The position numbers were made by a program, and so were the translations under genes. Positions 42,678-55,774 of a stretch of DNA of 63,937 bases are shown here, in pieces. The notes beneath the pieces are model-generated. The model did not search any database and had not been told where the DNA came from. It saw only the letters and a program-made list of their open reading frames with translations. The first letter of the stretch is position 1, and each line of letters opens with the position of its first letter. The DNA is from Chloroflexota bacterium (GTDB taxonomy: Bacteria; Chloroflexota; Anaerolineae; Anaerolineales; UBA4823): assembly GCA_032124675.1 (NCBI GenBank), contig JAQBDA010000231.1:1-63937 (forward strand), given 5' to 3'.

Positions 42678-42784
42678 ATTCTCCAATACCATCCAGGCCA
42701 ATAAGCCTGTTTACAAACAGGCGGGCATCGAGATTTGTCGGATTATAACATTTCGTGAAATTTACCTCATATCACTCGCAGCAA

Positions 42785-42813
42785 TTGCACCCCTGTAGAT
42801 CGCATTGTATAAT
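42785..42813 (+). promoter_or_regulatory. Sigma-70 promoter of icd
   Basis: TTGCAC-17-TATAAT about 90 nt upstream of the ATG. Confidence 0.7.
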
Positions 42814-42904
42814 CAACCCGGACTGCTATCATTCGCAGCTGGCCGGGGATTCGTACTGACCTCTCTGCCGCTGATTTGCAAGTACTTTTCCAAGGGAGCG
42901 TAAT

Positions 42905-44209
42905 ATGAGCTATCAAAGCATACAGGTTCCACCAGATGGGGGGAAAATATCAATAGATAATGGAGTGCTGCAGGTTCCGGATAATCCGGTAATCCCGTTC
43001 GTCGAAGGCGATGGCACCGGTAGGGACATCTGGCGGGCATCGGTGCGCGTCTTCGATGCCGCAGTAGACAAAGCTTATGCCGGAGAGCGAAAAATCCACT
43101 GGATGGAGGTGTTGGCAGGAGAGAAAGCCTACAACAGCTTGAATTCATGGCTGCCAGATGAGACCGTACGGGCATTTCGTGAATTCCTGGTCGGGATTAA
43201 AGGACCCCTGACGACACCCATTGGTGGCGGCATCCGTTCCCTCAATGTCGCCTTGCGAAAAGCGCTCGACCTGTACGTGTGCCAGCGCCCGGTTCGCTAT
43301 TTCAACGGTGTCCCTTCCCCTGTAAAACACCCAGAGTATGTGGATATGGTCGTCTTTCGCGAGAACACTGAAGATATCTACGCAGGGATTGAATTCGAAG
43401 ACGGTACCCCAGGAAATCTGCGCTTTCAAGAGCTAATGCGAGAGAACTTCCCCCAGGAGTATGCAAAGATCCGCTTTCCAGACAGCACCGGGTTCGGGGT
43501 CAAACCGGTTTCACGGGAAGGCACTTACCGGCTGGTGCGCGCGGCTATCCAGTGGTCTCTGGATAGCCAGCGCCATAGTGTAACGCTGGTACATAAAGGT
43601 AATATTATGAAGTACACCGAAGGATCCTTCCGCAACTGGGGGTACGAGCTGGCAGAAGCAGAGTTTGGCGATCGAGTCTACACCTGGTCGCAGTGGGAAC
43701 GCACCAAATCAGACCAGGGTGAAGCTGCTGCCAATGCCGAACAGGACAATGCTCTAAAAGCCGGCAGATTGCTGGTCAAGGATGTAATCGCCGATATCGT
43801 ATTCCAGCAAACCATCACCCGAGCGCGCGAGTTCGATGTACTGGCGACCATGAATCTCAATGGCGATTATCTATCCGATGCCCTGGCAGCCCAGGTGGGC
43901 GGGATCGGGATCGCTCCGGGCGGGAATATCAACTACACCAGCGGGCATGCGGTATTCGAAGCCACGCACGGTACTGCTCCTAAATATGCCGACAAAGACG
44001 TGGTCAATCCCGGCTCAGTCATCCTTTCCGGAGAGATGATGCTGCGCTATATGGGCTGGCACGAAGCTGCCGAACGCATCATCAAAGGCATGGAGGGCGC
44101 AGTCGCCGCCAAAACTGTCACTTACGACTTCCACCGCCTGATGGAGAATGCCGTGCTGCTGAAATGTTCCGAGTTCGGCGATGCGGTCATTGCTCATATG
44201 GATGGTTGA
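42905..44209 (+). CDS. icd: NADP-dependent isocitrate dehydrogenase (E. coli-type)
   Basis: [42 protein letters not shown] (KY suggests NADP), VTYDFHR. Confidence 0.95.
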
Positions 44210-44237
44210 TCCTACTGCCTGGTTTGTATATCGGATG

Positions 44238-44265
44238 GGGGTGCTGGGATTCGGCACCCCTTTTT
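44238..44265 (+). terminator. Intrinsic terminator of icd
   Basis: ggggtgc/gcacccc stem followed by TTTTT. Confidence 0.8.
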
Positions 44266-44282
44266 AGTTGATATTTGCCGCA

Positions 44283-45593
44283 ATGCCCGATACAGGTCCG
44301 CTGACAGAACTGGTCGAAATCCCTTATGGTGACACCCTGCTCAAGGTGGATGTCCCCCGCAGGTGGTTGGGAGAAATGGTACAGCCGCCGGTAATATCTC
44401 CGATGGGTGAGCCCGACCATCTGATCCATAAGGCCCTCAACAATCCTATTGACACCCCCAGGATAGAACAGATCGCCAAACCGGGGCAGCAAGTCGCCAT
44501 CCTGGTGGATGATCACACTCGCAAGACACCTGCCCGGCGTATGCTCTACCAGCTGCTGGAACGGCTGGAGTCGGCCGGCATCCGGGAGAGGGAAATCTGC
44601 ATCGTGCTGGCATTAGGCAGTCACCGGGCGATGAACGCCTGTGAAGTGGAGGACAAGCTCGGGGAAGAGATCGCCAGCCGTTATGAGATTGTCAACACTC
44701 CCGGTTCGGATCGAGCTGAATTCCGGCATCTTGGCACAGCTTCCAGCAATATCCCGGTATGGATACATCACCGGGTAACTGATGCTGACATACGTATCGG
44801 GTTGGGGATGATCACCCCTCATATGGATGCCGGGTTCAGCGGGGGTGCCAAGATCGTCCTGCCGGGAGTGTGCAATGACCTGACAGTGAACGCCTTTCAC
44901 GTCCGCTCTGCATATCTGACGGGCAACCCTCTGGGGGATGCCAATGCCCCACTGCGTCGCGATCTCGAAAGTGCCGTCGCTGAGCTGGCTCCTCTGGACT
45001 TCATCCTCAATGCAATCCCAACCTTGCACGACGAGACCTACACATGTGTTGCCGGTCATCCGGTCAAAGCGCATCGTGTCGGGGCGGTTTATGCCCGGAA
45101 GGTATTCCAAGCATCTGCCAGAAAGAAGTACCCAATAGTGGTCGCTGGATGCTATCCCTATGAGCATGACCTGTGGCAGAGCATGAAAGGGATGTGGTGC
45201 AGCGACCTGCTCACCGCAGATGGCGGCAGTCTGGTGCTGCTGACCACAGCCAAAGAAGGTACACGGGCGACACCCAATCTCCCCGGGTACATCGGCATGG
45301 ATCCGGAGAGCCTGCTGGCCGACCTCGCATCAGGCAGCGCAGTGGATCAGAAATCAGCAGCTACCGGGGTCATGGTGGGGCGCATGAAGCAGCGCATCAA
45401 TATTTCACTGGTATCCGGCGGGTTAAACCGAACCGATGCACGTTCCATGGGGTTAACATACTTTAAATCTGTTGAAGAAGCCCTGGAACAAGCCGCAGGA
45501 AGGCTGCAGCCAGCCGACCTACAAGGATCCATTGGATTTATCCCGTATGCTGGACTTGTTCTCCCGCTGGTAGACTCTCGCAGCCTGTCGTAG
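44283..45593 (+). CDS. LarA-family (nickel-pincer nucleotide-dependent) racemase/epimerase
   Basis: DDHTR, LGSHR, PHMDAGFSGGAK, a His after the GGAK region (AFH) and LWQSMK match the LarA active-site pattern. Start 44268 or 44283. Confidence 0.85.
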   Translation: MPDTGPLTELVEIPYGDTLLKVDVPRRWLGEMVQPPVISPMGEPDHLIHKALNNPIDTPRIEQIAKPGQQVAILVDDHTRKTPARRMLYQLLERLESAGIREREICIVLALGSHRAMNACEVEDKLGEEIASRYEIVNTPGSDRAEFRHLGTASSNIPVWIHHRVTDADIRIGLGMITPHMDAGFSGGAKIVLPGVCNDLTVNAFHVRSAYLTGNPLGDANAPLRRDLESAVAELAPLDFILNAIPTLHDETYTCVAGHPVKAHRVGAVYARKVFQASARKKYPIVVAGCYPYEHDLWQSMKGMWCSDLLTADGGSLVLLTTAKEGTRATPNLPGYIGMDPESLLADLASGSAVDQKSAATGVMVGRMKQRINISLVSGGLNRTDARSMGLTYFKSVEEALEQAAGRLQPADLQGSIGFIPYAGLVLPLVDSRSLS

Positions 45594-45744
45594 ATTATCC
45601 CTCAACGCTTACAAGGGTAATATTCGGCACAGAAACTGGATTTGATCCCAGGAGCGAGGACAATTTAAGCTCGAATCTAAGATCAACTGAAAAACCGGCT
45701 GCGGAATCAGGAACAGGAGGTAGCTTATACGAATATAATAACTA

Positions 45745-45789
45745 TTGACATCGACCTTGCTTAAAACTACCTTTATAAATTGTTACAAT
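45745..45789 (+). promoter_or_regulatory. Candidate promoter and operator of the amino-acid ABC operon
   Basis: TTGACA-17-TACCTT followed by the dyad attgt-t-acaat (45779-45789). Confidence 0.35.
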
Positions 45790-45790
45790 A

Positions 45791-46606
45791 ATGGAGAAGA
45801 AGCTCATGAAACACAAACAATATCTTATTATCGCCGTTCTGCTCATGACACTGCTGTTATCTGCCTGTGCATCGAACACGGGGTCCTCGGATGAAGGATA
45901 CCTAGGAACAATTAAAGAGCGTGGCAAACTGGTGGTCGGCACCTCGGCCGACTATCCGCCCTATGAGTCTGTGAACGAGGCGGGCGAATTCGCCGGTTAC
46001 GACATGGACTTGATCCGCGAGATTGGCAAACGGATGGGTGTGGAAGTCGAGATCAAGGATATGGCATTCGATGCCTTGATCGCCGCAGTACAGGAGAAGA
46101 AGGTCGATGTCGTCATCGCCGCGATGCAGTCCTCACCGGAACGGGATGAGAAAGTAGATTTCACAATCCCCTACCACTATCAGAAGGACGCCTTCCTGGT
46201 TGCTGCCGATTCAACCATCGTCCTCAACAAAGCCATGGACGCAGCCGGTCACAGCATCGGTGTGCAAACCGGCACCATCCAAGAGCAGTGGACGCTGGAT
46301 AACCTGGTACCTGCCGGCACGAGCGAAGATCAGGTCTTCCGCTATGAACGCGTCGATCAGGGGGCGCTGGATGTGAAAGCCGGGCGGGTCGACCTGCTGT
46401 TCATCAACGCCGACCCTGCCGCGGAGCTCGCCGCCGAACTGGGTATCAAGGTTGCCCTGGTTACCGACGAGACCGTGATCGGTGGACAATCCATCGCTCT
46501 GCCAGAAGGCGAGAAGCAGCTGCAGGATGAACTCAACCGCATCCTGGGAGAGATGGAAAGTGATGGAACTCTGCAGCAGCTGCTGGAAACATGGGGCATA
46601 CCTTAA
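45791..46606 (+). CDS. Polar amino-acid ABC transporter substrate-binding lipoprotein
   Basis: Lipobox LLSAC, VGTSADYPPYE, FDALIAAV, GVQTGT. Confidence 0.9.
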   Translation: MEKKLMKHKQYLIIAVLLMTLLLSACASNTGSSDEGYLGTIKERGKLVVGTSADYPPYESVNEAGEFAGYDMDLIREIGKRMGVEVEIKDMAFDALIAAVQEKKVDVVIAAMQSSPERDEKVDFTIPYHYQKDAFLVAADSTIVLNKAMDAAGHSIGVQTGTIQEQWTLDNLVPAGTSEDQVFRYERVDQGALDVKAGRVDLLFINADPAAELAAELGIKVALVTDETVIGGQSIALPEGEKQLQDELNRILGEMESDGTLQQLLETWGIP

Positions 46607-46617
46607 CCTATATCTGG

Positions 46618-46659
46618 GGAGCATCTTGCCGGATGGGTCGGTAAGATGCTCCGTTTTCT
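46618..46659 (+). terminator. Intra-operon hairpin after the SBP gene
   Basis: ggagcatcttgcc/ggtaagatgctcc stem followed by gttttct; the usual position for a partial terminator or stabiliser. Confidence 0.65.
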
Positions 46660-46673
46660 GACCGGCTGAACCG

Positions 46674-47324
46674 ATGGGTTTCTTACAAGATCTGCTGCGC
46701 CTTTTCCCTTATCTGCTGACCGGTATCGGGATCACGATTGGTGTAACGGTCATCGCATTAACCACCGGATTCACGCTGGGCGTGCTGTTGGCGACCTTAC
46801 GGGTCTACGGTGGTCCAGCCTCGCGCTGGTTTGCTGCAACATACAGCCTGATCATCCGTGCGGTCCCGGTCATCGTCGTGATCTTCATCCTGTTTTTTGT
46901 CATAGCTCGATTTGTAGACCTATCACCATTCCTTTCCGGTTCCATCGCGCTGGGTCTTGCCAGCGGGGCATATCAATCGGAGGTCTTCCGGGGAGCGATC
47001 CTCTCCGTTCCCGGGGGGCAGATGATGGCCGCGCGTGCGATCGGGATGAGCAGGAGTAAAGCAATCCGCTATATCGTCCTGCCGCAGGCCATGCGCCTGG
47101 CGATCCCTCCCTGGTCTAATGAAGCTGCCATCGTCCTCAAAGACTCCTCCCTGGTGTATGTGATCGGGGTGGCAGAAATCCTGCGCCGCGCCGAATATGT
47201 AAGCGCCCGTACGCTGCAGCCATTCCTCGCCTTCGGTGCTGCCGCTGTGATCTATTTTGCCCTGACCTTCATTACCAACCGCGTCCTGGACTACCTCGAG
47301 CGGCGCTACAAAATCCTGATGTGA
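46674..47324 (+). CDS. Amino-acid ABC permease
   Basis: IRAVP, EAA loop [30 protein letters not shown]. Confidence 0.92.
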
Positions 47325-48106
47325 CGGAGCAGCCCATGAGCGAGCAAACCATCCTGCGCATCGAAAACCTGCATAAAGCCTTCCAAAATACGGAAGTGAT
47401 CAAGGGCATCTCTTTTGAAATCCAGGAGAGAGAAGTGGTCGTCATCATCGGACCCAGCGGCACCGGTAAAAGTACCCTGCTGCGCTGCATTAACCTGCTG
47501 ACCCGACCGGATATGGGCCGCATCTGGCTCGAGGACCTGGAGATTACCGCCCCAAACACCAAAGTCGACCAGGTCAGGCAGCACATCGGCATGGTCTTCC
47601 AGGATTTCAACCTCTTCAATCACCTGACCGCACTGCAGAACGTAACCATCGGGATGACCAAAGTGCTGAAGATGAAACCTGACGAGGCGCACCAGAAAGG
47701 TATGTGGGAGCTTGAGCGGGTGGGGCTGGTGGACAAAGCAGAATCGTACCCTGCCCAGCTCTCTGGGGGTCAAAAACAGCGCGTGGCCATCGCCCGCGCT
47801 CTGGGTATGAATCCATCCGTCATGCTCTTCGACGAGCCTACATCGGCTCTCGACCCCGAGCTGATCGGAGAAGTGCTGAACGTTATGCAGAAGCTGGCGG
47901 AGGAAGGCATGACTATGCTGGTCGTCACCCACGAGATGGGGTTCGCACGGGAAGTCTCCGATCGCATCATATTCATGGAAAACGGTGATATCGTCGAGCA
48001 GGGACCCCCGAAGAAGCTATTTTACAATCCGGAATTCGAGCGCACGCGGGACTTCCTGTGGAAGATAACTGAACTGTACGGAAAACAAGAACCAGGAGAG
48101 GCTTGA
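47321..48106 (+). CDS. Amino-acid ABC ATP-binding protein (GlnQ-like)
   Basis: [37 protein letters not shown]. Confidence 0.94.
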
Positions 48107-48792
48107 GCATGCTCGATAGCCTGGTTATCTACCTTCAGCGTATTGGACCAGACCTTCTGCAAGGGGTGATTCTCACCCTGGAGCTTACTGTGGTCGCCCT
48201 GGCAGTGGGGCTGTTGTTCGGGCTGCCGGCGGCGCTGGCGCGAGTCTATGGCGGCAGAGGGCCGCGAAGCATTGCCCTGGCATATATCGAAATATTCCGC
48301 GGCACTCCCTTGCTGGTACAGCTTTTCATTGTGTATTACGGCCTGCCCGACCTGGGTCTGACCTTCTCCCGTATGGCTGCCGCGTTCATCACCTTGGGTA
48401 TGAACAGCGGTGCGTACCAGGCCGAATATTTTCGCGGAGCGATCCAGGCGGTGGGCAGCGGGCAAATGGTTGCTGCCCGGGCAATCGGTATGTCACAGAT
48501 GCAGGCAATCCGCTATATTGTCCTGCCTCAGGCGCTGCGGCTGGCTCTACCTGCCTGGTCTAATGAAGCAGTCTCGATGATAAAATACACCGCGGTCGTC
48601 TTTCTGATCGCCGTCCCAGACCTGATGGGCAAGGCGAAAATTTTGGCAGGACGCTACTTCAATCCAATCGAGATCTATCTTACCGTAGCATTGATTTATA
48701 TCGTCCTGGTTGCAGCTGCGACCTGGATCGTACGCACTGTGGAGATCAAAATGCAGACACCGGGGTTGGAACTGGAAGTCGAAAGGCATTGA
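48103..48792 (+). CDS. Amino-acid ABC permease
   Basis: [18 protein letters not shown]...GQ..AARAIGM. Confidence 0.92.
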
Positions 48793-51389
48793 TGCTGGAT
48801 CGAGAGACAAAGCGGGCGTTGGAAGTCGGCTTCCAACCCGGGCAGATATTGACCAGCCCGGCGCAAACTGCTGCCTACCAGCTCGACGCGGGCATGGAGA
48901 GACATATACCCGACGGTGTGGTCCTGCCCGAAAATGCCGCTCAGGTATCGATGCTCGCCCGCTGGGCTGCCCAGCATGGGATATCACTGACCGCCCGCGG
49001 CGCCGGCACCAGCTTCACCGGTGGCTCGATCGCCGCTCCAGGTGGCGTGATTGTCAGCTTTGCCCGGATGAAAGAGATCGTGGAGGTGAACGAGACTAAC
49101 CGGCAGGCTGTTGTCCAGCCGGGGGTTATCACGAATGTGCTGCAGAGATATATCCTGCCGCTGAACCTAGTTTATCCTCCCGACCCGGCCAGCCACTCGG
49201 TATGCACGCTGGGCGGCAACATCGCTGAGAACGCCGGCGGCCCGCACTGCTTGAAGTATGGGGTTACAGGCAACTACGTGCTTGGATTGCAGACCGTCCT
49301 CGCCGGCGGGCAGGTTGTGTCTTTGGGAGGCAAGGCTCTGGACCCGCCCGAATATGATTTCACCAGCCTGGTCACCGGGTCAGAGGGCACTCTGGTGCTG
49401 GTCACTGCTGCTACGCTGCTGCTGCGGCGCCCATTTCAAGGCGTACAGGCTCTCACCGCCAGCTATACCACTGTGGCACAGGCTGGTATGGCCGTCTCGG
49501 CGGTGATTGCGGCAGGTCTCATCCCGGCTACTATCGAGCTGATGGATAACGGCATGATCAACATCGTCGAAGATTATCTGAACGCAGGCTTCCCCCGGGA
49601 AGCCGGGGCAATGCTGATCATCGACGTGGATGGCTATCCCGAAAGCCTGGACGCACAGCTGTCGCAGGTCGCGGATATACTGAGAAAATTCCAGCCAATC
49701 GAGGTCAAGACCGCCCGCACAACCCAGGAGCGCGAGTTGTTGTGGAGGGGCAGGCGCAGCGCGGCCGGAGCGATTTCACGCATCAGCCCAAACGAGCTGC
49801 TGGTAGACGTGAGCGTACCGCGCTCCCTGCTGGCTGAAACGATCCTGGCAATCAACCAGATCGGGCAGAAGCACAGCTTCCGGGTATGCTATCTGGCGCA
49901 TGCCGGGGATGGCAATCTCCACCCCAACCTGCTGTGCGACTTTTCGAAGCAGGGAGAAAGGGAAAGGGCACTGCTCGCAGGGGGCGAAATCCTGCACCAC
50001 TGCGCCCAGATCGGCGGCTCGATCAGCGGCGAGCACGGGGTCGGCCTGGAGAAGCGCGATTATCTGAATACGATGTATGCTCCAGGTGAGATCGATGCGA
50101 TGTTAGAGATCAAGCAGGTATTCGATCCACAGAACCTGCTGAACCCCGGCAAGATATTCCCGGTCGATCACAAGCCGGACAGAGAATCATTCACCCGACG
50201 CGCCAGCCTCCCCGGCACGTATTTCCAACCCGCCAGCCCTGTGGAAGCCGCCGATGGTCTGCGCGCCCTGCAGGCTGCAGGTACACCGACCAATATCACC
50301 GGTGGTCGTACCCACTGGCGGGGCGACCCGCCCCAGGGGACTGTGCTTTCCTCCGCCGGTATGCACGGCATCCAAAAAATATCCGCTGACGATCTGTATG
50401 TCACTGCCCGCGGCGGCACATCGCTTGCAGAGCTTCAACAGGTACTTGCAGAACGAGGGTTCTGGATTCCTGTACACAGTGGTCAATCTGAGAGCACTTT
50501 GGGCGGCGCGCTGGCTGCTAACGCCAATGGCCCTCTGCGTGCCTTATATGGCGGGCTGCGCGACCAACTTCTGGCTGTCGAAGTGGTCCTGGCGGACGGG
50601 CGGCTGATGCGCTTTGGGAAGCCGCTGGTCAAAGATGTAGCCGGCTACAACCTCAGCAAACTTCAGGTTGGTGCCTACGGTACTCTCGGACTGATTACTG
50701 AAGCTACAATGAAGCTGGTTCCGCTGCCAGGTGCCCGCCGAAGTCTGATCGCTTCCGTGCCAGATTTGGAGCAGGGTTTACGCTGGGGTTATGAGGCGCT
50801 GCGGCAGGCCATTACCTGCTCCGGGATCGTGCTGGTGTCGAACCCAATCGGAAACAACAGCCTTCCAGGTATCACTCTGGTCTGTACTTCTGAAGGACAT
50901 CCGCTGGATGTCACAGCAGAAATGAATAGCTTATCAAACATATTGACCCGGTGCGGCGCAGACGTGCAGAGAGAGACCGTCAAGACCAGCGCAGCCCAGC
51001 AGTGGGAGGAGCAGTTTAAACATGCCGAGTTTGTCGCACGCGCAGCCGTTCCGCCTGAAAACCTGAGTGGCATGTGCGCGCTTCTATCGACTCACGACCT
51101 GCCATTTGTCATGGATATCACCAACGGTATGCTGGCAGTGACCAGTTCGACGGCCGCTTCTGGCGAGCTTCTCAACAGTTTACGAGCGAGTACTGAGCCG
51201 CACGGGTATGCCCTGATGGCGGCTGGCCCCAGGTCGCTGCTGGGCGAAGTCGACCTATGGGGTAGGCCGCGCCAAAGCCATGAGCTGATGGGCAGGCTCA
51301 AACTGCGCTGGGACCCTGCCGACATTCTCAACCGCGGAGAGTTCATCTCTCCACTATTCCCACGCAGCAAAACGCTGCAAGTGGCATGA
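48789..51389 (+). CDS. Fused FAD-linked 2-hydroxyacid oxidase subunits (GlcD-like plus GlcE-like)
   Basis: First half: RGAGT..GG, PPDPAS, TLGGN.AENAGG, HAGDGNLH, GEHGVG, LLNPGKIF. Second half: KDVAGYNLSKL..GAYGTLG, WDPADILN. Confidence 0.88.
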   Translation: MMLDRETKRALEVGFQPGQILTSPAQTAAYQLDAGMERHIPDGVVLPENAAQVSMLARWAAQHGISLTARGAGTSFTGGSIAAPGGVIVSFARMKEIVEVNETNRQAVVQPGVITNVLQRYILPLNLVYPPDPASHSVCTLGGNIAENAGGPHCLKYGVTGNYVLGLQTVLAGGQVVSLGGKALDPPEYDFTSLVTGSEGTLVLVTAATLLLRRPFQGVQALTASYTTVAQAGMAVSAVIAAGLIPATIELMDNGMINIVEDYLNAGFPREAGAMLIIDVDGYPESLDAQLSQVADILRKFQPIEVKTARTTQERELLWRGRRSAAGAISRISPNELLVDVSVPRSLLAETILAINQIGQKHSFRVCYLAHAGDGNLHPNLLCDFSKQGERERALLAGGEILHHCAQIGGSISGEHGVGLEKRDYLNTMYAPGEIDAMLEIKQVFDPQNLLNPGKIFPVDHKPDRESFTRRASLPGTYFQPASPVEAADGLRALQAAGTPTNITGGRTHWRGDPPQGTVLSSAGMHGIQKISADDLYVTARGGTSLAELQQVLAERGFWIPVHSGQSESTLGGALAANANGPLRALYGGLRDQLLAVEVVLADGRLMRFGKPLVKDVAGYNLSKLQVGAYGTLGLITEATMKLVPLPGARRSLIASVPDLEQGLRWGYEALRQAITCSGIVLVSNPIGNNSLPGITLVCTSEGHPLDVTAEMNSLSNILTRCGADVQRETVKTSAAQQWEEQFKHAEFVARAAVPPENLSGMCALLSTHDLPFVMDITNGMLAVTSSTAASGELLNSLRASTEPHGYALMAAGPRSLLGEVDLWGRPRQSHELMGRLKLRWDPADILNRGEFISPLFPRSKTLQVA

Positions 51390-51399
51390 GGAAAAGTAT

Positions 51400-52719
51400 A
51401 TGAATGAGGCATACGAATTTGCAGATACTACTCGTTGGGCATCGAGCGTCCTGATGCCCAGTTTTTCCGCCGACTGGCCCCTGCTGCCGGTCGAGCGTGC
51501 AGAAGGTGCGTATCTCTACACTACAAATGGGAAACGCTACCTAGACTTCACTTCCGGCATCGCGGTCACCAATGTCGGGCACGGTCACCCGAAAGTTCTG
51601 GCGGCTGCCAGGGAACAGATGGAAAAATTCTCCCACAGCGCGGTTGGCATCACGCTGCACGAACCGCTCTTACAGCTCACACAGGCATTGACCGAGGTGA
51701 TGCCCTCCGGCATGGATATGTATTTCTTCGGCAATAGTGGAGCCGAAGCAGTAGAAGGAGCGTTGAAGCTGGCACGCTACGTTACCGGTCGTCCGGGTAT
51801 CATTGCATTCGAAGGCGGCTTTCACGGGCGCACCTACGGGGCTGCATCGGTTACATCTGTCAAGTCGAAATACCGCGATCATTACGAGCCGTTCGTCCCG
51901 GGCGTGTATTTTGCACCCTACGCCTACCCCTACCGCTGCCCCTGGGGAGATGATGAAGGATCGACAATCGCCTGGAGTATCGCAGGCATCGAGACCATCT
52001 TTGATCGACTGATACCGCCTACACAGGTCGCGGCAATGCTGGTCGAGCCTGTGCAGGGAGAAGGGGGTTATGTGATACCTCCAGCCGGCTTCCTGCATGC
52101 CCTGCGCCGCATCTGCGATGAGCATAATATTTTGCTGATCCTGGATGAAGTCCAGACCGGTTTTGGGCGGACGGGCGAGATGTTCGCAGCCCAGGTAGTC
52201 GATGTCCGCCCGGATATCATGGCAATTGCCAAAGGCATCGCCAATGGGTTCCCTCTCAGCGCTACTGCAGCCAGCCATGAGTTAATGAGCCTCTGGAAGC
52301 CAGGCGCTCACGGGACTACCTACGGCGGGAACCCGATTGCCTGCGCCGCTGCTCTGGCGACCCTGGAAGTGATCCGGGAGGAGAATCTTCTGGAGAACTG
52401 CCGTATAATGGGAGTGAAACTGCTGCGGGGTATGCAGCAGTTCAAGGAGCAGTATGACTTCATCGGAGATGTGCGCGGACTCGGGCTGATGTTGGCGATG
52501 GAGATGGTCGTGCCTGGGGGTAAATCCCCCAATCCTGAAGCAGCAACTGCCGTCCTGAACAACTGCCTGGAAGGCGGTCTGGTCGGCTATATGGCCGGAC
52601 TGCATGGGCAGGTAGTGCGGCTGATCCCACCCCTGAATGTCAGCGAAGAACAAGTAGGAGAAGCGCTGCGCATCCTGGCGGGAAGTCTGGCGGAATACAA
52701 TCAAGTAATTGCAGGCTAG
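51400..52719 (+). CDS. Class III PLP aminotransferase (GabT-like)
   Basis: YLDFTSGI, SGAEAVEGA, FHGRT, EPVQGEGG, DEVQTGFGRTG, AKG, GTTYGGNP. Confidence 0.92.
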   Translation: MNEAYEFADTTRWASSVLMPSFSADWPLLPVERAEGAYLYTTNGKRYLDFTSGIAVTNVGHGHPKVLAAAREQMEKFSHSAVGITLHEPLLQLTQALTEVMPSGMDMYFFGNSGAEAVEGALKLARYVTGRPGIIAFEGGFHGRTYGAASVTSVKSKYRDHYEPFVPGVYFAPYAYPYRCPWGDDEGSTIAWSIAGIETIFDRLIPPTQVAAMLVEPVQGEGGYVIPPAGFLHALRRICDEHNILLILDEVQTGFGRTGEMFAAQVVDVRPDIMAIAKGIANGFPLSATAASHELMSLWKPGAHGTTYGGNPIACAAALATLEVIREENLLENCRIMGVKLLRGMQQFKEQYDFIGDVRGLGLMLAMEMVVPGGKSPNPEAATAVLNNCLEGGLVGYMAGLHGQVVRLIPPLNVSEEQVGEALRILAGSLAEYNQVIAG

Positions 52720-52733
52720 ATGAGGAGCGACCC

Positions 52734-53360
52734 ATGCCAGTAAAGATCCTGATAGTAGATGATCACAGCGTAGTGCGCCAGGGATTGAGGATGTTCCTCT
52801 CACTCGACGCAGACCTGGAGGTGGTTGGGGAGGCCAGCAACGGTCAGGAAGCGATCGAGATGGTCGAAAAGCTCAATCCCGACGTGGTTCTGATGGACCT
52901 GCTGATGCCGGTGATGGACGGCATCACAGCCACCCAGATCATACGCAGGGATTTCAGCCACAGCGAAGTGGTCGCTCTGACCAGCGTATTGGAAGACGCT
53001 TCGGTGGTCAACGCGGTGCGCGCCGGCGCAATCGGCTATCTGCTCAAAGACACGCAGGCCGACGAACTATGCCGGGCGATCAAAGCCGCAGCAGCGGGAC
53101 AGGTGCAGCTTTCCCCTAGAGCTGCGGAGCGTCTGATGCGCGAGATCCGCGCTCCCGAAAGCCCGGAGAAGCTCACCGAGCGTGAGACTGATGTGCTGCG
53201 TCTGTTGGCATCCGGTATGGCGAACAAAGAGATCGCCCTCGAGATGCACATCAGCGAAACCACAGTCAAGACCCATGTCAGCAACATCCTGATGAAATTA
53301 GGTGTCCCCAGCCGCACGCAGGCAGCGCTGTACGCCGTCCGGATTGGCCTGGTCTCATAG
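52734..53360 (+). CDS. NarL/LuxR-family response regulator
   Basis: VDDH, DVVLMDLLMP, GYLLKD, LTERE..VL.L...G..NKEIA..ISETTVKTHV. Confidence 0.95.
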   Translation: MPVKILIVDDHSVVRQGLRMFLSLDADLEVVGEASNGQEAIEMVEKLNPDVVLMDLLMPVMDGITATQIIRRDFSHSEVVALTSVLEDASVVNAVRAGAIGYLLKDTQADELCRAIKAAAAGQVQLSPRAAERLMREIRAPESPEKLTERETDVLRLLASGMANKEIALEMHISETTVKTHVSNILMKLGVPSRTQAALYAVRIGLVS

Positions 53361-53396
53361 TAATTTCGTCTTAAAAAATATCGAGTCCTAAACCAG

Positions 53397-53422
53397 GCGG
53401 CGCAGACCATGGTCTGCGCCGC
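53397..53422. repeat. Perfect 26-bp palindrome
   Basis: gcggcgcagacca|tggtctgcgccgc with no spacer, 36 nt after the regulator stop. Confidence 0.85.
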
Positions 53423-53598
53423 TAATTGTATCAATCTTCACGCACAAACAACACCTGAACTTCTTCTGTCATTATCCCGAACTGACGTATTCTCCTACGA
53501 AAGGATGAGATTGAATCGTACCCGGGCGGGATACCTGGAACTAAAATAGCCGTTATGATATGTATAAGTGCTCCCGCTGGGAGACCGGGAATATATCT

Positions 53599-55077
53599 AT
53601 GCATACCAATCGACATCGAATCACACTTTTTATATTCTTTTTTGGTCTTTCTATGATCAGCTGCAACCTGCTGGCTCAACAGCCGCTCCCGCAGAACAGC
53701 GTGGACGCCCTGTACACCCAGGCAGCTCAAACGGTTCAGGCACAACTAACCCAGCAAGCCATCAGTACTCAAGCCGTGCAGATAACCGGTTCGTCGGATA
53801 ATCCGCTTTCTGCTGCAACCCTTACGGCTATCCCAACCCTGCCGCAAGATCTCAAACCGACAGCCACGCCGACCGTCATGCCATCTGCAACAGCAACACT
53901 ACCCCTCCCAACGCCTCTGCCACCCACCGCTACAAGCGCGCCAGTCCTGTGTGACCAAGCCGGGTTCATCAAGGATGTAACCATTGCAGACGGCACATCA
54001 TTCTCACCAGCTGCCGAGTTCACCAAGGTCTGGCGGTTGAGAAATATAGGATCATGTACCTGGAATTCGAGTTATTCGCTTGTATATGTCAGTGGTGAGA
54101 GAATGCGCGTCTCCAAATCAATCCCTCTTGCAGGAAATGTGCGCCCTGGAGAGGCGGTTGACATCGCCGTCGATCTGCTGGCACCCCCCGATCAAGGCCG
54201 TTACCGCGGCTACTGGATGCTGTCCAATGCCGATGGGGAGATTTTTGGGATCGGTAAAGAGGCCGATAAATCCTTCTGGGTCGAAATTCGGGTGACCTCA
54301 CCAAACCAGCGCTTTGCTTATGATTTCGCTATCAATATGTGCACAGCCACCTGGCGCAGCAGCTCGAACAGCCTGAGCTGTCCTGGTGATCCGACCAGCA
54401 AGGATGGCTCTGTGGTGCTGCTCGAGCGACCAGAGCTGGAAAATGGTCGCAGAGAAGACGAATCCACACTATGGAGCAGACCAGAATCTACCCGTGATGG
54501 CTGGATCCAGGGGGTTTACCCGCCTTACAAAGTCCGGGCCGGAGATCACTTCCTGTCAGAAGTTGGCTGCCTGGCAGATAACGAGGGCTGTGAAGTCGTG
54601 TTCGCGTTGGATTACCAGGTTTCCGGCGGATCTGTGAAGAACCTGGGTGAGTGGTATGAGATCTCTGATGGAGCTACAACCGATATCGATATAGATCTAT
54701 CCGGACTGGAGGGAAAAACCATCCAGTTCATCCTCAGCGTAACCAATTACGGAAAACCAAGCCAAGCGAATCCATTCTGGCTGGTACCTGCTGTGCGTCA
54801 GAACCAGCCTGCGCCAACGCAGGAGGTTTACGCCCCAGTGATTGAGTCTGCCCGGCGCAGGCTAGCAGAGGACTTGAACCTCGACATCAACGAGATTAAA
54901 GTGGTCAGCTTCGAGCTGGCCGAATGGCAGGACAGCTGCCTGGGAGTTAAACTGCCCGACGAGATCTGCAGTGAGGACGAAATACCGGGCTACAAGATAA
55001 ATATGAACACTTCCAAAAAGGCATACGAAGCGCATACCAATATGGATGCCAGCATCGTCTACTGGTTCGAACTGTAG
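53599..55077 (+). CDS. Multi-domain lipoprotein with an NBR1-type Ig-like (FW) domain
   Basis: Lipobox SMISC, Pro/Thr linker, FIKDVTIADG....FTKVWRLRN.G.CTW pattern; C-terminal WQDSCLG...C...PGY domain. Start likely 53599. Confidence 0.75.
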   Translation: MHTNRHRITLFIFFFGLSMISCNLLAQQPLPQNSVDALYTQAAQTVQAQLTQQAISTQAVQITGSSDNPLSAATLTAIPTLPQDLKPTATPTVMPSATATLPLPTPLPPTATSAPVLCDQAGFIKDVTIADGTSFSPAAEFTKVWRLRNIGSCTWNSSYSLVYVSGERMRVSKSIPLAGNVRPGEAVDIAVDLLAPPDQGRYRGYWMLSNADGEIFGIGKEADKSFWVEIRVTSPNQRFAYDFAINMCTATWRSSSNSLSCPGDPTSKDGSVVLLERPELENGRREDESTLWSRPESTRDGWIQGVYPPYKVRAGDHFLSEVGCLADNEGCEVVFALDYQVSGGSVKNLGEWYEISDGATTDIDIDLSGLEGKTIQFILSVTNYGKPSQANPFWLVPAVRQNQPAPTQEVYAPVIESARRRLAEDLNLDINEIKVVSFELAEWQDSCLGVKLPDEICSEDEIPGYKINMNTSKKAYEAHTNMDASIVYWFEL

Positions 55078-55165
55078 CCTGAAGTTTGTGAATTGCCACC
55101 GGCAGCCTGTTGTGATCCCCAAAGGGTCATTAAGGTATAATAGCCATCAGAGAAAGGAGAAAACG

Positions 55166-55774
55166 ATGTTCTCGAATATCTCAATTAACCGCACCAGAAA
55201 GATCGCAAAGCTGTTTGGCCTGCTAATGGTAGCTGCTCTCCTGGCGGCTTCAATACCGCAGATGGCTTACGCAGCACCTGCACCTGCTGTAACAGTGACA
55301 TGTGCAAGATACCACAATGTGGTGTCAGGGGATACAATCTCCGCCCTCTCGGTGACATATGACATCTCGGTCGCCGAGCTGGCTGCAGCCAATGACCTCA
55401 AAGAGCCCTATACACTTCTCATCGGTCAGCGCCTGTGCATCCCCGGTAGTACAACCACATCCAGCGGCAGCACATCGACCTCAACCAGCTCAAGTTCTTC
55501 AGCTCCGGTCATCGCCGTCGAGCGGGATGGAAAATTCCTGGTGATCAACGTTGCAAACTTCCCCAAAAAGGGCAACTATTATGTTAAGATCAAGAAGGGT
55601 CATTGGGGCACCGATACCCCCTGGTACAAGATTGGCATCTTCCGCACCAAGAAAAACACGGACGTAACCCGTTCTTTCAGGCTGCCCAGCAACTTCTTTG
55701 ACCCCTCATTGATTACAGTTTGTTTGAAGAACGCCAAGACGGATGGCGTCACCTGCGTGCCCCACTGGGAGTAA
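55166..55774 (+). CDS. Secreted LysM-domain protein
   Basis: AAAGGAG SD, signal peptide ending AYA, LysM (HNVVSGDTISAL..YDISVAELAAAN.L......GQRL.IP), Ser/Thr linker. Confidence 0.85.
   Translation: MFSNISINRTRKIAKLFGLLMVAALLAASIPQMAYAAPAPAVTVTCARYHNVVSGDTISALSVTYDISVAELAAANDLKEPYTLLIGQRLCIPGSTTTSSGSTSTSTSSSSSAPVIAVERDGKFLVINVANFPKKGNYYVKIKKGHWGTDTPWYKIGIFRTKKNTDVTRSFRLPSNFFDPSLITVCLKNAKTDGVTCVPHWE

Follow-up and report, generated by a model that had tools for sequence, protein, structure and literature searches.

Which substrate could be served at once by a nickel-pincer racemase, an amino acid importer, a hydroxy acid dehydrogenase and an aminotransferase? This question is raised by a stretch of 63,937 nucleotides from a Chloroflexota bacterium (assembly GCA_032124675.1, contig JAQBDA010000231.1; hereafter the window), in which a homolog of the racemase LarA, a polar amino acid ATP-binding cassette (ABC) importer, a fused GlcD-GlcE flavoprotein and a GabT-like class III aminotransferase are encoded one after another on the + strand (44283-52719). 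A sequence-only reading of the window had described these co-oriented genes, with intact motifs, beside icd, at the positions where we find them, and had proposed that they form an undescribed pathway module around an uncharacterized LarA. Our analysis supports this proposal, because the genes for the racemase cofactor are present in the same genome and the linkage is kept in relatives. It is probable that the cluster acts as one functional module for a nitrogen-bearing 2-hydroxy acid. Argininate (2-hydroxy-5-guanidinopentanoate) specifically, with close guanidino or amino analogs also considered, is a tentative candidate for this compound.

Linkage of the cluster genes in two phyla

A pattern search across 185,579 species genomes returned 25 loci, mostly from Chloroflexota (Anaerolineae, Caldilineaceae) and Deltaproteobacteria (Syntrophobacter, Desulfobacteraceae, Desulfovibrio), which we read by tblastn with the window proteins, open reading frame clustering, Pfam and NCBIfam scans, and look-ups of contigs with precomputed Pfam annotation. 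LarA is linked with transporter, dehydrogenase and transaminase genes in relatives as well: among about 29 loci with a member of the LarA clade described below, a polar amino acid ABC transporter is adjacent in about 17, a 2-hydroxyacid dehydrogenase in about 18 and an aminotransferase in about 20. The order of the window, from icd through LarA, binding protein, permease, ATPase and permease to GlcD-GlcE and the aminotransferase, is shared by locus L006 (loci in relatives carry the prefix L). In L012 and L015, a MOSC gene stands between LarA and the binding protein, and the series again ends with GlcD-GlcE and the aminotransferase. The transporter genes precede LarA and the aminotransferase in L008, L013 and L016, followed in L008 and L016 by a 980-aa YdiJ-like dehydrogenase combining flavin adenine dinucleotide (FAD), Fe-S and CCG domains, and also in L014, where an additional gene, GlcD-GlcE and a nicotinamide adenine dinucleotide (NAD)-dependent D-2-hydroxyacid dehydrogenase come next. 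L017 starts with GlcD-GlcE, continues with the transporter and aminotransferase genes, and has LarA 2.4 kb upstream, and L031 reads binding protein, permease, a permease fused to LarA, and GlcD-GlcE.

In the deltaproteobacterial loci L019, L021, L024, L025 and L071, a class I/II aminotransferase is followed by binding protein, permease, ATPase, permease, LarA, GlcD and GlcF; L022 has LarA, GlcD and GlcF. A nickel-type energy-coupling factor (ECF) transporter, LarA, an NAD-dependent D-2-hydroxyacid dehydrogenase and a class III aminotransferase make up L009, L032 and L033, the latter two with additional 3' genes for an HpaB/AbfD-like protein, an SDR protein and a 2-oxoacid:ferredoxin oxidoreductase. 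L036, finally, combines an aldehyde:ferredoxin oxidoreductase (AFOR), a class III aminotransferase, an NAD-dependent dehydrogenase, GlcF, GlcD-GlcE and LarA. The dehydrogenase is thus swapped non-orthologously among a GlcD-GlcE fusion, a YdiJ-like protein, GlcD plus GlcF, and an NAD-dependent D-2-hydroxyacid dehydrogenase, and the aminotransferase is of class III in the Chloroflexota and of class I/II in the Deltaproteobacteria. The recurrence of the same four functions in shuffled order and with non-orthologous replacement provides strong evidence that they serve one pathway. This pathway would run from the L- through the D-2-hydroxy acid and the 2-oxo acid to the amino acid, or in reverse where the NAD-dependent enzyme is used. 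Such co-occurrence across two phyla, with shuffled gene order, is far beyond chance.

Four new loci, looked up from the binding protein side, recovered the same neighbors overall; among them, L069 has the synteny of the window, and L071 is of the deltaproteobacterial type with LarA, GlcD and GlcF. In the class of the window, taken as Anaerolineae, the LarA clade is rare and patchy: a class-wide search at E<=1e-90 matched 24 of 201 sampled genomes, only two of which (our own and one other) contain true clade members, the remaining matches being other LarA homologs with 29-35% identity.

An uncharacterized LarA clade

The LarA homolog (44283..45593, +) matches PF09861 (Lar_N) with 189 bits against a cut-off of 23.3 and PF21113 (LarA_C) with 24.0 bits, just below the cut-off of 25, and aligns over its full length with the structures 6d6z, 9eia and 5huq. 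It has the fold, domains, and catalytic and cofactor residues of the LarA superfamily (Desguin 2020, PMC7583248; Urdiain-Arraiza 2024, PMC11770544), with equivalents of Lactiplantibacillus plantarum D72, R75, H108, H174, K184, H200, Q295 and K298 all present. The two catalytic histidines, the nickel-pincer nucleotide (NPN)/nickel ligands K184 and H200, and R75, D72, Q295 and K298 are kept in 49 of 49 aligned clade members. The protein is therefore predicted to be an NPN-dependent 2-hydroxyacid racemase or epimerase. It does not belong to any of the curated families for malate racemase, lactate racemase, LarAH10, 2-hydroxyglutarate (2-HG) racemase or gluconate 2-epimerase, as its scores for the NCBIfam LarA equivalogs are all well under the cut-offs (best for LarAH6 malate racemase, 279/500; others 233/460, 222/462 and 213/540). 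Its nearest solved relative is the malate racemase Mar2 (PDB 6d6z), but its identity to any characterized member is about 30%. In a maximum-likelihood tree with Desguin groups 1-4 and 6-11 (PMC7583248 supplement), Mar2 and the Isosphaera enzyme, the window LarA and 45 relatives form a clade with support of 100/99 on a long branch. Placement among the characterized groups, which had been called for from the sequence alone, thus puts the clade outside all of them (LAR, SAR, MAR, HGR and HHR), with an archaeal pair as its sister and malate-racemase-like proteins next.

What sets this clade apart is the surroundings of the substrate side chain. Crystal structures show that the two residues following the second catalytic histidine contact the C-alpha substituent (PMC11851776), and positions 175, 176, 358 and 359 (L. 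plantarum numbering) are specificity determinants with a pattern for each activity: F, F, W, E/Q/T for LAR; x, x, H/Q, K for MAR; Y, F, H/Q, T for HGR; E, V, A, H for GntE; and F/Y at position 358 for HHR (PMC11770544). The window LarA has H-M-D at positions 174-176 together with W294, A358 and T359. Across the clade, these four determinants read M/L, D/E, A (S/T/V) and T/A, Trp replaces Tyr294, and position 176 is invariantly acidic (Asp or Glu). This signature fits none of the LAR, SAR, MAR, HGR, GntE or HHR patterns, and the stored part of the 354-sequence Desguin dataset contains no member with an H-M/L-D/E-K signature. Other residues conserved specifically in the clade are D76, a second family-specific acid, which lies beside the D72/R75 motif and corresponds to Ser71 in LarA, as well as R171, F205, N215, D/E308 and Y336. 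Such an acidic side-chain pocket points to a cationic or hydrogen-bond-donating substituent and argues against malate or 2-hydroxyglutarate. Our literature searches found no LarA reported to act on a cationic or nitrogen-bearing 2-hydroxy acid.

The families of all enzymes in the cluster are known, and the association of LarA genes with a GlcD-type neighbor has been noted before; dehydrogenases of the GlcD (COG0277) or Fe-S (COG0247) type have been recorded next to several LarA groups. The closest precedent is group 9 of Desguin 2020, a LarA group without assigned function that comprises locus tags from Clostridium botulinum and Halanaerobium hydrogeniformans and adjoins a polar amino acid ABC transporter in 80% and a COG0075 aminotransferase in 90% of cases (Table S1). 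In the C. botulinum members, the loop behind the catalytic histidine likewise includes an acid (H-D-M); Halanaerobium Halsa_0022 reads H-P-L. However, group 9 belongs to another lineage, joining groups 8 and 10 in the tree, and differs from the window clade in its class V aminotransferase, in the position of the loop acid, which lies one residue earlier, and in having no flavoprotein dehydrogenase among its listed neighbors. A similar module seems to have been invented independently in the two cases. Literature searches returned no description of the window clade, of the operon or of a cluster combining LarA, an aminotransferase and an ABC transporter.

Cofactor genes and paralogs in the same genome

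LarA activity depends on the NPN cofactor, and the sequence-only reading had pointed out that larB, larC and larE are not in the window. We confirmed their absence there and found all three elsewhere in the same genome (assembly of 4.85 Mb, 92% complete), where larE, larB and larC lie together at C191:1146-3409 on the + strand, each above its NCBIfam cut-off (LarE 330 bits, LarB 277.6 bits, LarC 190.8 bits). The genome encodes two LarA homologs, the second at C235:32-1340, and larBCE therefore supply more than one LarA enzyme. The C235 protein has an H-Q-F loop along with G-P-H-K, the motif that marks malate racemases. The canonical genes glcD, glcE and glcF, not fused to one another, are located at C145:4992-8721. 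This GlcD and the N-terminal half of the window fusion share 40% identity, and the fusion is thus a paralog rather than the glycolate oxidase of this genome. As a test for a downstream route resembling arginine transaminase catabolism, we also searched the genome for an arginase-family gene and found none. Another small nitrogen metabolism cluster, consisting of a homolog of ornithine cyclodeaminase/mu-crystallin followed by two class III aminotransferase paralogs, lies at C168:46310-50012.

The binding protein and the importer

The importer had been judged complete from the sequence. All of its components are indeed present, with the sole correction that their order is binding protein, permease, ATPase, permease, and it belongs to the polar amino acid ABC importers, given its SBP_bac_3 protein, two permeases with the HEQRo 3-TM domain (TIGR01726 scores of 73.9 and 104.6 against a cut-off of 42.2) and ATPase. 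The binding protein gene (45791..46606, +; likelier start ATG 45806) encodes a protein that starts MKHKQYLIIAVLLMTLLLSAC, a lipoprotein signal as expected for a monoderm. Permease 1 (46674..47324, +; BPD_transp_1 72 bits, the lower of the two TIGR01726 scores) is followed by the ATPase gene (47321..48106, +; ABC_tran 126 bits), whose start overlaps it by 4 nt and whose nearest families, TcyN, GlnQ and EhuA, are all scored under their cut-offs. The gene for permease 2 (48103..48792, +) overlaps the ATPase gene by another 4 nt.

The nearest solved relatives of the binding protein are the arginine binders AncQR, Caldanaerobacter 4YMX and Thermotoga ArgBP. In ArgBP, Arg101 contacts the carboxylate, Asp183 the alpha-nitrogen, Phe38 and Phe76 the aliphatic part, and Asp37, Glu42 and Gln142 the guanidinium group of the ligand, and glutamine is not bound (PMC4022495). 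Our alignment matches the ArgBP numbering exactly (anchors Gly52, Gly94, Met95, Gln116 and Thr146) and has no indel from the GR(V/A)D anchor to position 183. The binding proteins linked to LarA retain Asp37, Tyr38, Glu42, Phe76, Arg101 and Gln142, but carry Gln96 for Thr96, Asn (or Ile/Leu) for Asp183, and Asp or Glu at position 185. Accordingly, the window receptor, at 35-40% identity to Thermotoga maritima ArgBP (PDB 4PSH/6SVF) and ArtJ, has the same or conservatively replaced contacts to the guanidinium group, the aromatic sandwich and the carboxylate, and differs in Asp183 to Asn (Ile, Val, Leu or Gln in homologs), Thr96 to Gln and the new acid at position 185. It therefore has the Arg of a canonical alpha-amino acid site (Arg101) without the Ser/Thr96 and Asp183 that complete it. 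All of the 120 closest homologs have Gln96; at position 183, Asn occurs in 88 of them, Ile, Val, Leu, Gln or Gly in 20 and Asp in 12. An internal control is provided by the paralogous binding proteins on C237 and C71 (36% identity), in which the side-chain site is the same but Ser96 and Asp183 are retained.

Kept arginine side-chain contacts combined with the loss of Asp183 argue that the ligand resembles arginine in its side chain but bears a group other than an amino group at C-alpha; given the linkage to a racemase and a dehydrogenase, it would be a 2-hydroxy acid. A receptor for nothing but a standard amino acid, which would have undermined the original proposal, is not borne out, as Gln96 and Asn183 are predicted to leave no standard alpha-amino acid site. 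The distribution of the two receptor types shows the same trend. In L020, L026 and L027, which have Asp183-type receptors, LarA is not contiguous and there is no dehydrogenase, whereas the non-Asp loci have both; L070 likewise combines an Asp183-type receptor with a class III aminotransferase only, and with neither dehydrogenase nor LarA. The deltaproteobacterial receptors of L024 (Ile183) and L071 (P0233, Gln183) belong to the Gln96 family, and among the distantly related ones, those of L021 and L025 have Ser for Asp183 and that of L019 keeps Asp. Receptors lacking the ammonium-pairing Asp thus travel with hydroxy acid enzymes and Asp183 ones do not, a correlation in a small sample uncorrected for kinship. 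We also considered D-arginine as the ligand, with Asp185 as the ammonium contact, and rejected it as the principal interpretation, since LarA and GlcD-type enzymes do not act on amino acids.

The dehydrogenase and the aminotransferase

The dehydrogenase gene (48792..51389, +) encodes a single chain of 866 aa, and its coupling to the importer through a TGATG overlap, which had been pointed out before, is plain in the sequence (permease 2 stop 48790-48792, fusion ATG 48792-48794). The N-terminal, catalytic half contains the metal and catalytic motifs HAGDGNLH and SGEHGVG and is closest to the deposited glycolate oxidase 9qgz and to LctD; the C-terminal half resembles GlcE, with an FAD domain but none of these motifs. 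With FAD_binding_4 and FAD-oxidase_C domains, the His/His/Glu metal site, the catalytic His and the substrate Arg, the protein has all features of a generic FAD-dependent D-2-hydroxyacid dehydrogenase of the VAO/PCMH family. Its RGRR, HAGDGNLH and SGEHGVG motifs correspond in the alignment to mouse LDHD residues R347, H398/H405 and E442/H443, and the five residues of the published catalytic subsite of LDHD (Arg, His, His, Glu and His) are all present (PMC10589216). Specificity for the D isomer is expected by analogy. GlcDEF, LctD/LDHD and D-2-hydroxyglutarate dehydrogenase (D2HGDH) have the same domain architecture, metal ligands and substrate Arg, but the window enzyme differs from all three in being a GlcD-GlcE fusion without GlcF at the locus and in its side-chain subsite, where Ala stands for Trp351 (LDHD), Thr390 (D2HGDH) and Phe341 (E. 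coli GlcD), Leu for Ser365 (LDHD) and Lys401 (D2HGDH), and Asn for Ile407 (LDHD) and Asn443 (D2HGDH). Judged from these positions, the pocket should be larger, partly polar and devoid of a Lys for a distal carboxylate. Assignment to glycolate oxidase GlcDEF fails on both models (GlcD 554.1 against 567.9, GlcE 169.8 against 284), on the missing GlcF and on the Ala in place of Phe341, which belongs with Tyr351 to the small hydrophobic subsite of E. coli GlcD. A GlcF-like gene lies directly 5' of the fusion in L036, and GlcF-like genes exist elsewhere in our genome.

The last enzyme (51400..52719, +) is a class III (fold type I) pyridoxal 5'-phosphate (PLP)-dependent aminotransferase, as indicated by an Aminotran_3 score of 434 bits and the presence of the HGRT Arg, the QGEGG Glu and the C-terminal Arg. 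It is about 45% identical to PuuE and GabT, with PuuE (6wj8) as its best PDB match, and close to archaeal class III amino acid racemases. In the PuuE alignment, it keeps the GabT-type residues, namely the Ile of GIAV, the Arg of HGRT, the Glu of QGEGG and the C-terminal Arg. The sole model passed is that of the broad subfamily PRK08117 (599.8 bits against a cut-off of 574); the GabT equivalog TIGR00700 reaches 403.5 against 506.65, and further GabT models score lower still.

This transaminase may act at C2 or on an omega-amino group. The GabT-type residues, the AFOR neighbor in L036 and the cyclodeaminase/mu-crystallin gene in L013 and L016 speak for an omega role. Action at C2 is favored by the lack of an aldehyde dehydrogenase conserved in the cluster, by the use of a class I/II enzyme in the deltaproteobacterial loci, and by operons of the Asp183 type, in which this class III enzyme accompanies a receptor that takes the amino acid itself. 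There is also a precedent, in that AGXT2, a class III enzyme, transaminates the alpha-amino group of methylarginines and homoarginine. The transaminase therefore probably acts on the 2-oxo product. Removal of an omega-amino group, as put forward in the sequence-only reading, is not secured by the comparative evidence, yet it remains a live rival.

Proposed pathway and alternative explanations

From these observations we infer the substrate, the direction of flux and transamination at C2, and we give the resulting mechanism as a whole a probability of roughly 0.4. The lipoprotein receptor and the ABC transporter would bring in a basic, arginine-like 2-hydroxy acid; as a descendant of arginine binders that is devoid of the alpha-ammonium Asp, the receptor should favor a hydroxy (or oxo) head group at C-alpha. 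LarA, with the NPN provided by LarB, LarC and LarE, would then interconvert the L and D forms through transient hydride transfer, its invariant Asp/Glu two residues past the second catalytic His holding the cationic side chain. The GlcD-GlcE flavoprotein would oxidize the D form to the 2-oxo acid, which the aminotransferase, using glutamate as the donor, would convert to arginine or an analog that feeds into normal metabolism. The racemase would make the route stereo-convergent, allowing one D-specific dehydrogenase to serve both enantiomers. A substrate with both a 2-hydroxy acid and a nitrogenous group, as originally suggested, fits the invariant acid of LarA, but the receptor indicates a guanidino compound and not 4-amino-2-hydroxybutyrate or isoserine, which had been named as examples. 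It is tempting, if speculative, to consider that this may be the first nickel-pincer racemase acting on a guanidino 2-hydroxy acid and the first dedicated microbial salvage of argininate, in both enantiomers, to arginine via 2-oxoarginine. Under the same tentative assumption, the receptor might have evolved from an arginine binder to a hydroxy acid binder by replacement of the single Asp that pairs with the ammonium group.

Guanidino chemistry is also suggested by a derived subclade (L034, L035, L037 and L010) with an Opp-type ABC transporter set, a URO-D family gene and an arginase-family gene, the latter adjoining LarA in L034, L035 and L037. L034 additionally contains genes of the PAD_porph and ADI/DDAH families (agmatine or arginine deiminase type) as well as carbamoyltransferase and CN-hydrolase genes, and these neighbors belong to guanidino compound metabolism. 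A known analogy is the arginine transaminase pathway of Pseudomonas aeruginosa, which includes arginase-family guanidino acid hydrolases and GabT-type enzymes; both kinds of genes adjoin members of the LarA clade. The two routes would have 2-oxoarginine (2-ketoarginine) as a common intermediate, linked to arginine by a PLP-dependent transaminase. However, the Pseudomonas pathway starts from arginine and the window route from a 2-hydroxy acid, via racemase and flavoprotein. The window contains neither a 2-ketoarginine decarboxylase nor a guanidinobutyrase, and the genome, as mentioned, has no arginase-family gene.

Several points weigh against argininate and the mechanism built on it. The substrate is deduced by aligning the receptor with a single solved arginine binder and by reading signature positions, and Asn183 and Gln96 would suit a 2-oxo or N-substituted derivative of arginine equally well. 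No acidic residue was identified in the side-chain subsite of the dehydrogenase, and the GabT-type residues of the aminotransferase are typical of omega-aminotransferases. L072 has the transporter, GlcD-GlcE and the aminotransferase but no LarA within 9 kb, and some clade members occur in other settings (nickel-type ECF transporter and NAD-dependent dehydrogenase; Opp-type ABC transporter, URO-D and arginase), so that the clade may cover several related substrates. Literature searches on microbial argininate metabolism gave no pathway, and one review conflates argininic acid with arginine. Furthermore, we know of no bacterial class III arginine alpha-transaminase, and argininate is not, to our knowledge, an abundant environmental metabolite.

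The alternative that fares best, although we regard it as rather unlikely, is that the substrate is an omega-amino-2-hydroxy acid (5-amino-2-hydroxyvalerate, 6-amino-2-hydroxyhexanoate or 4-amino-2-hydroxybutyrate), with the class III enzyme acting as an omega-aminotransferase onto 2-oxoglutarate. LarA and the flavoprotein would turn its 2-hydroxy into a 2-oxo group, and the amino-oxo acid may cyclize to 1-pyrroline- or 1-piperideine-2-carboxylate. In favor of such a route are the full set of GabT substrate residues in the GabT/PuuE-like transaminase, the AFOR gene beside the class III gene in the LarA/GlcF/GlcD-GlcE cluster of L036, and the position of the ornithine cyclodeaminase/mu-crystallin gene, whose family includes Pyr2C/Pip2C reductases, 5' of the transporter in L013 and L016; the acidic LarA residue would suit a primary ammonium as well as a guanidinium group, and the genome has no arginase-family gene. 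However, an aldehyde dehydrogenase is conserved in none of at least 13 transporter-linked loci, and the class I/II aminotransferases of the deltaproteobacterial clusters belong to a family acting on alpha-amino groups. Moreover, the receptor shows the Ser35/Asp37/Glu42/Gln142 pattern of the arginine-specific Thermotoga protein rather than the Asp35 of Lys/Orn/His binders, and amino-hydroxy acids of this kind are rare as natural products.

A neutral polar 2-hydroxy acid, analogous to glutamine, asparagine, citrulline, serine, homoserine or threonine (for instance 2-hydroxyglutaramate, glycerate or 2,4-dihydroxybutyrate), appears improbable. The LarA Asp/Glu would in this case accept a hydrogen bond from an amide, ureido or hydroxyl group, as the loop Glu of gluconate 2-epimerases does, and LarA indeed shares its loop acid, Trp294 and Ala358 with the gluconate epimerase groups. 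In addition, the best PDB match of the receptor, AncQR, was deposited as an ancestral Gln/Arg binder, the transporter subunits score near the GlnPQ and Ehu families, and the Asn in the dehydrogenase subsite fits polar groups. A neutral ligand is difficult to reconcile with the strict conservation of two acids, Asp37 and Glu42, in the side-chain site of the receptor, with the failure of the Thermotoga protein, which has the same site, to bind glutamine (PMC4022495), and with the arginase-family and deiminase neighbors in the sister subclade, which point to guanidino compounds. Least plausible by far is a route through 2-hydroxyglutarate, also suggested earlier, or a set of unrelated neighbors of icd (a racemase for malate, lactate or 2-HG, an ordinary amino acid importer, a glycolate oxidase and a transaminase for GABA): malate racemases are the closest solved and curated relatives of LarA, GlcD and GabT models are the top named matches, YdiJ-like dehydrogenases take the place of the fusion in L008 and L016, and icd supplies 2-oxoglutarate, but the equivalog scores all fall short, LarA has an acid instead of the H/Q-K (malate) or Y-F-H/Q-T (2-HG) signature and its pocket is acidic, not basic, the GlcD domain has Leu for D2HGDH Lys401, the residue for the distal carboxylate, and Ala for E. 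coli GlcD Phe341, the canonical glcDEF set and a malate-racemase-like LarA (GPHK motif) are encoded elsewhere in the genome, the shuffled linkage over two phyla excludes chance, and icd is adjacent in close relatives only.

Implications

Roughly half of the LarA superfamily has no assigned substrate, and the known members all act on uncharged, hydroxylated or acidic 2-hydroxy acids. A clade adapted to basic side chains that contain nitrogen would, if real, broaden the chemistry of the nickel-pincer cofactor, and the operon, with its receptor, racemase, dehydrogenase and transaminase, constitutes a ready test set that makes the function of the clade directly testable. The receptor may represent a natural case of an amino acid binder retuned to a hydroxy acid by a switch of one or two residues, which would be useful for biosensor design, and a stereo-convergent cascade that leads from a hydroxy acid to an amino acid is of interest for biocatalysis. 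In ecological terms, the module points to scavenging by Chloroflexota of sediments and by sulfate reducers of hydroxy acid analogs of amino acids, a poorly charted share of the pool of necromass and fermentation products.

Transcription, locus organization and further observations

More than 90% of the sampled words of the stretch are present in marine and estuarine sediment metagenomes, and an estuary metatranscriptome contains 56% of its words. At 97-99% identity, contigs of this metatranscriptome represent icd and its junction with LarA, the genes for the binding protein and the ATPase, the junction of permease 2 with the dehydrogenase, and the dehydrogenase and transaminase genes. The cluster genes are thus transcribed in the estuary, carry-over of DNA being possible.

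Upstream of the cluster, icd (42905-44209, +) encodes an NADP-dependent isocitrate dehydrogenase (NF005425, 675 bits, over the cut-off). We considered that its adjacency might be meaningful and rejected this, because it is kept in close relatives only and is probably incidental. The gap between icd and LarA contains a terminator-like hairpin with an 11-bp stem followed by a T run (44237..44261, +), which is crossed by a metatranscriptome contig (44020-44812). The AT-rich spacer of 197 nt ahead of the binding protein gene holds a promoter-like site (TTAAAA-17-TACAAT with extended TG; 45761..45789, +), a consensus match only. Directly 3' of this gene lies a long hairpin with a 15-bp stem (46618..46652, +), a position typical of an intra-operon stabilizer or attenuator. 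An Rfam scan of 42700-53700 at E<=1 gave no match and hence no guanidine or amino acid riboswitch. A NarL/LuxR-type response regulator (52734..53360, +), encoded 14 nt downstream of the aminotransferase gene, stays with the cluster in close relatives only (L006 and L069); it is a possible regulator outside the conserved core. Further 3' (53560-55774), a 505-aa N_BRCA1_IG (Ig-like) protein and an overlapping 242-aa LysM protein are encoded, and matches to the former also trail the cluster in L006 and L069.

Some of the related loci show peculiarities of their own. L006, from an Anaerolineaceae metagenome-assembled genome, is the closest relative with the same synteny. Identity to the window is 76-89% for its flanking and transporter genes, but only 55% for LarA and 62% for the fusion, indicating that the latter two either diverge much faster than their neighbors or were exchanged. 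A transposon was inserted after LarA in L069, where two DDE transposases and an integrase (L069:3567-7054) follow immediately and the LarA match stops at residue 395, so that the gene looks truncated. In L031, a locus without an ABC ATPase gene, permease 2 and LarA are called as one 675-aa protein (L031:9001-11028), which may reflect either a true fusion or an artifact of assembly or of a frameshift. In L009, L011, L032 and L033, LarA has 5' neighbors encoding an ECF component of the CbiQ type, a double ABC ATPase and a protein of 381 aa that carries no annotation. This set is similar to the nickel ECF transporter in the lar operon of Lactiplantibacillus and, by this analogy, probably supplies nickel for the cofactor. 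In L035 and L036, finally, genes for an MttB-family methyltransferase, corrinoid-binding proteins, a URO-D family protein and pterin-binding proteins lie on the strand opposite LarA, which hints at a link to the demethylation of methylated amines or guanidines.

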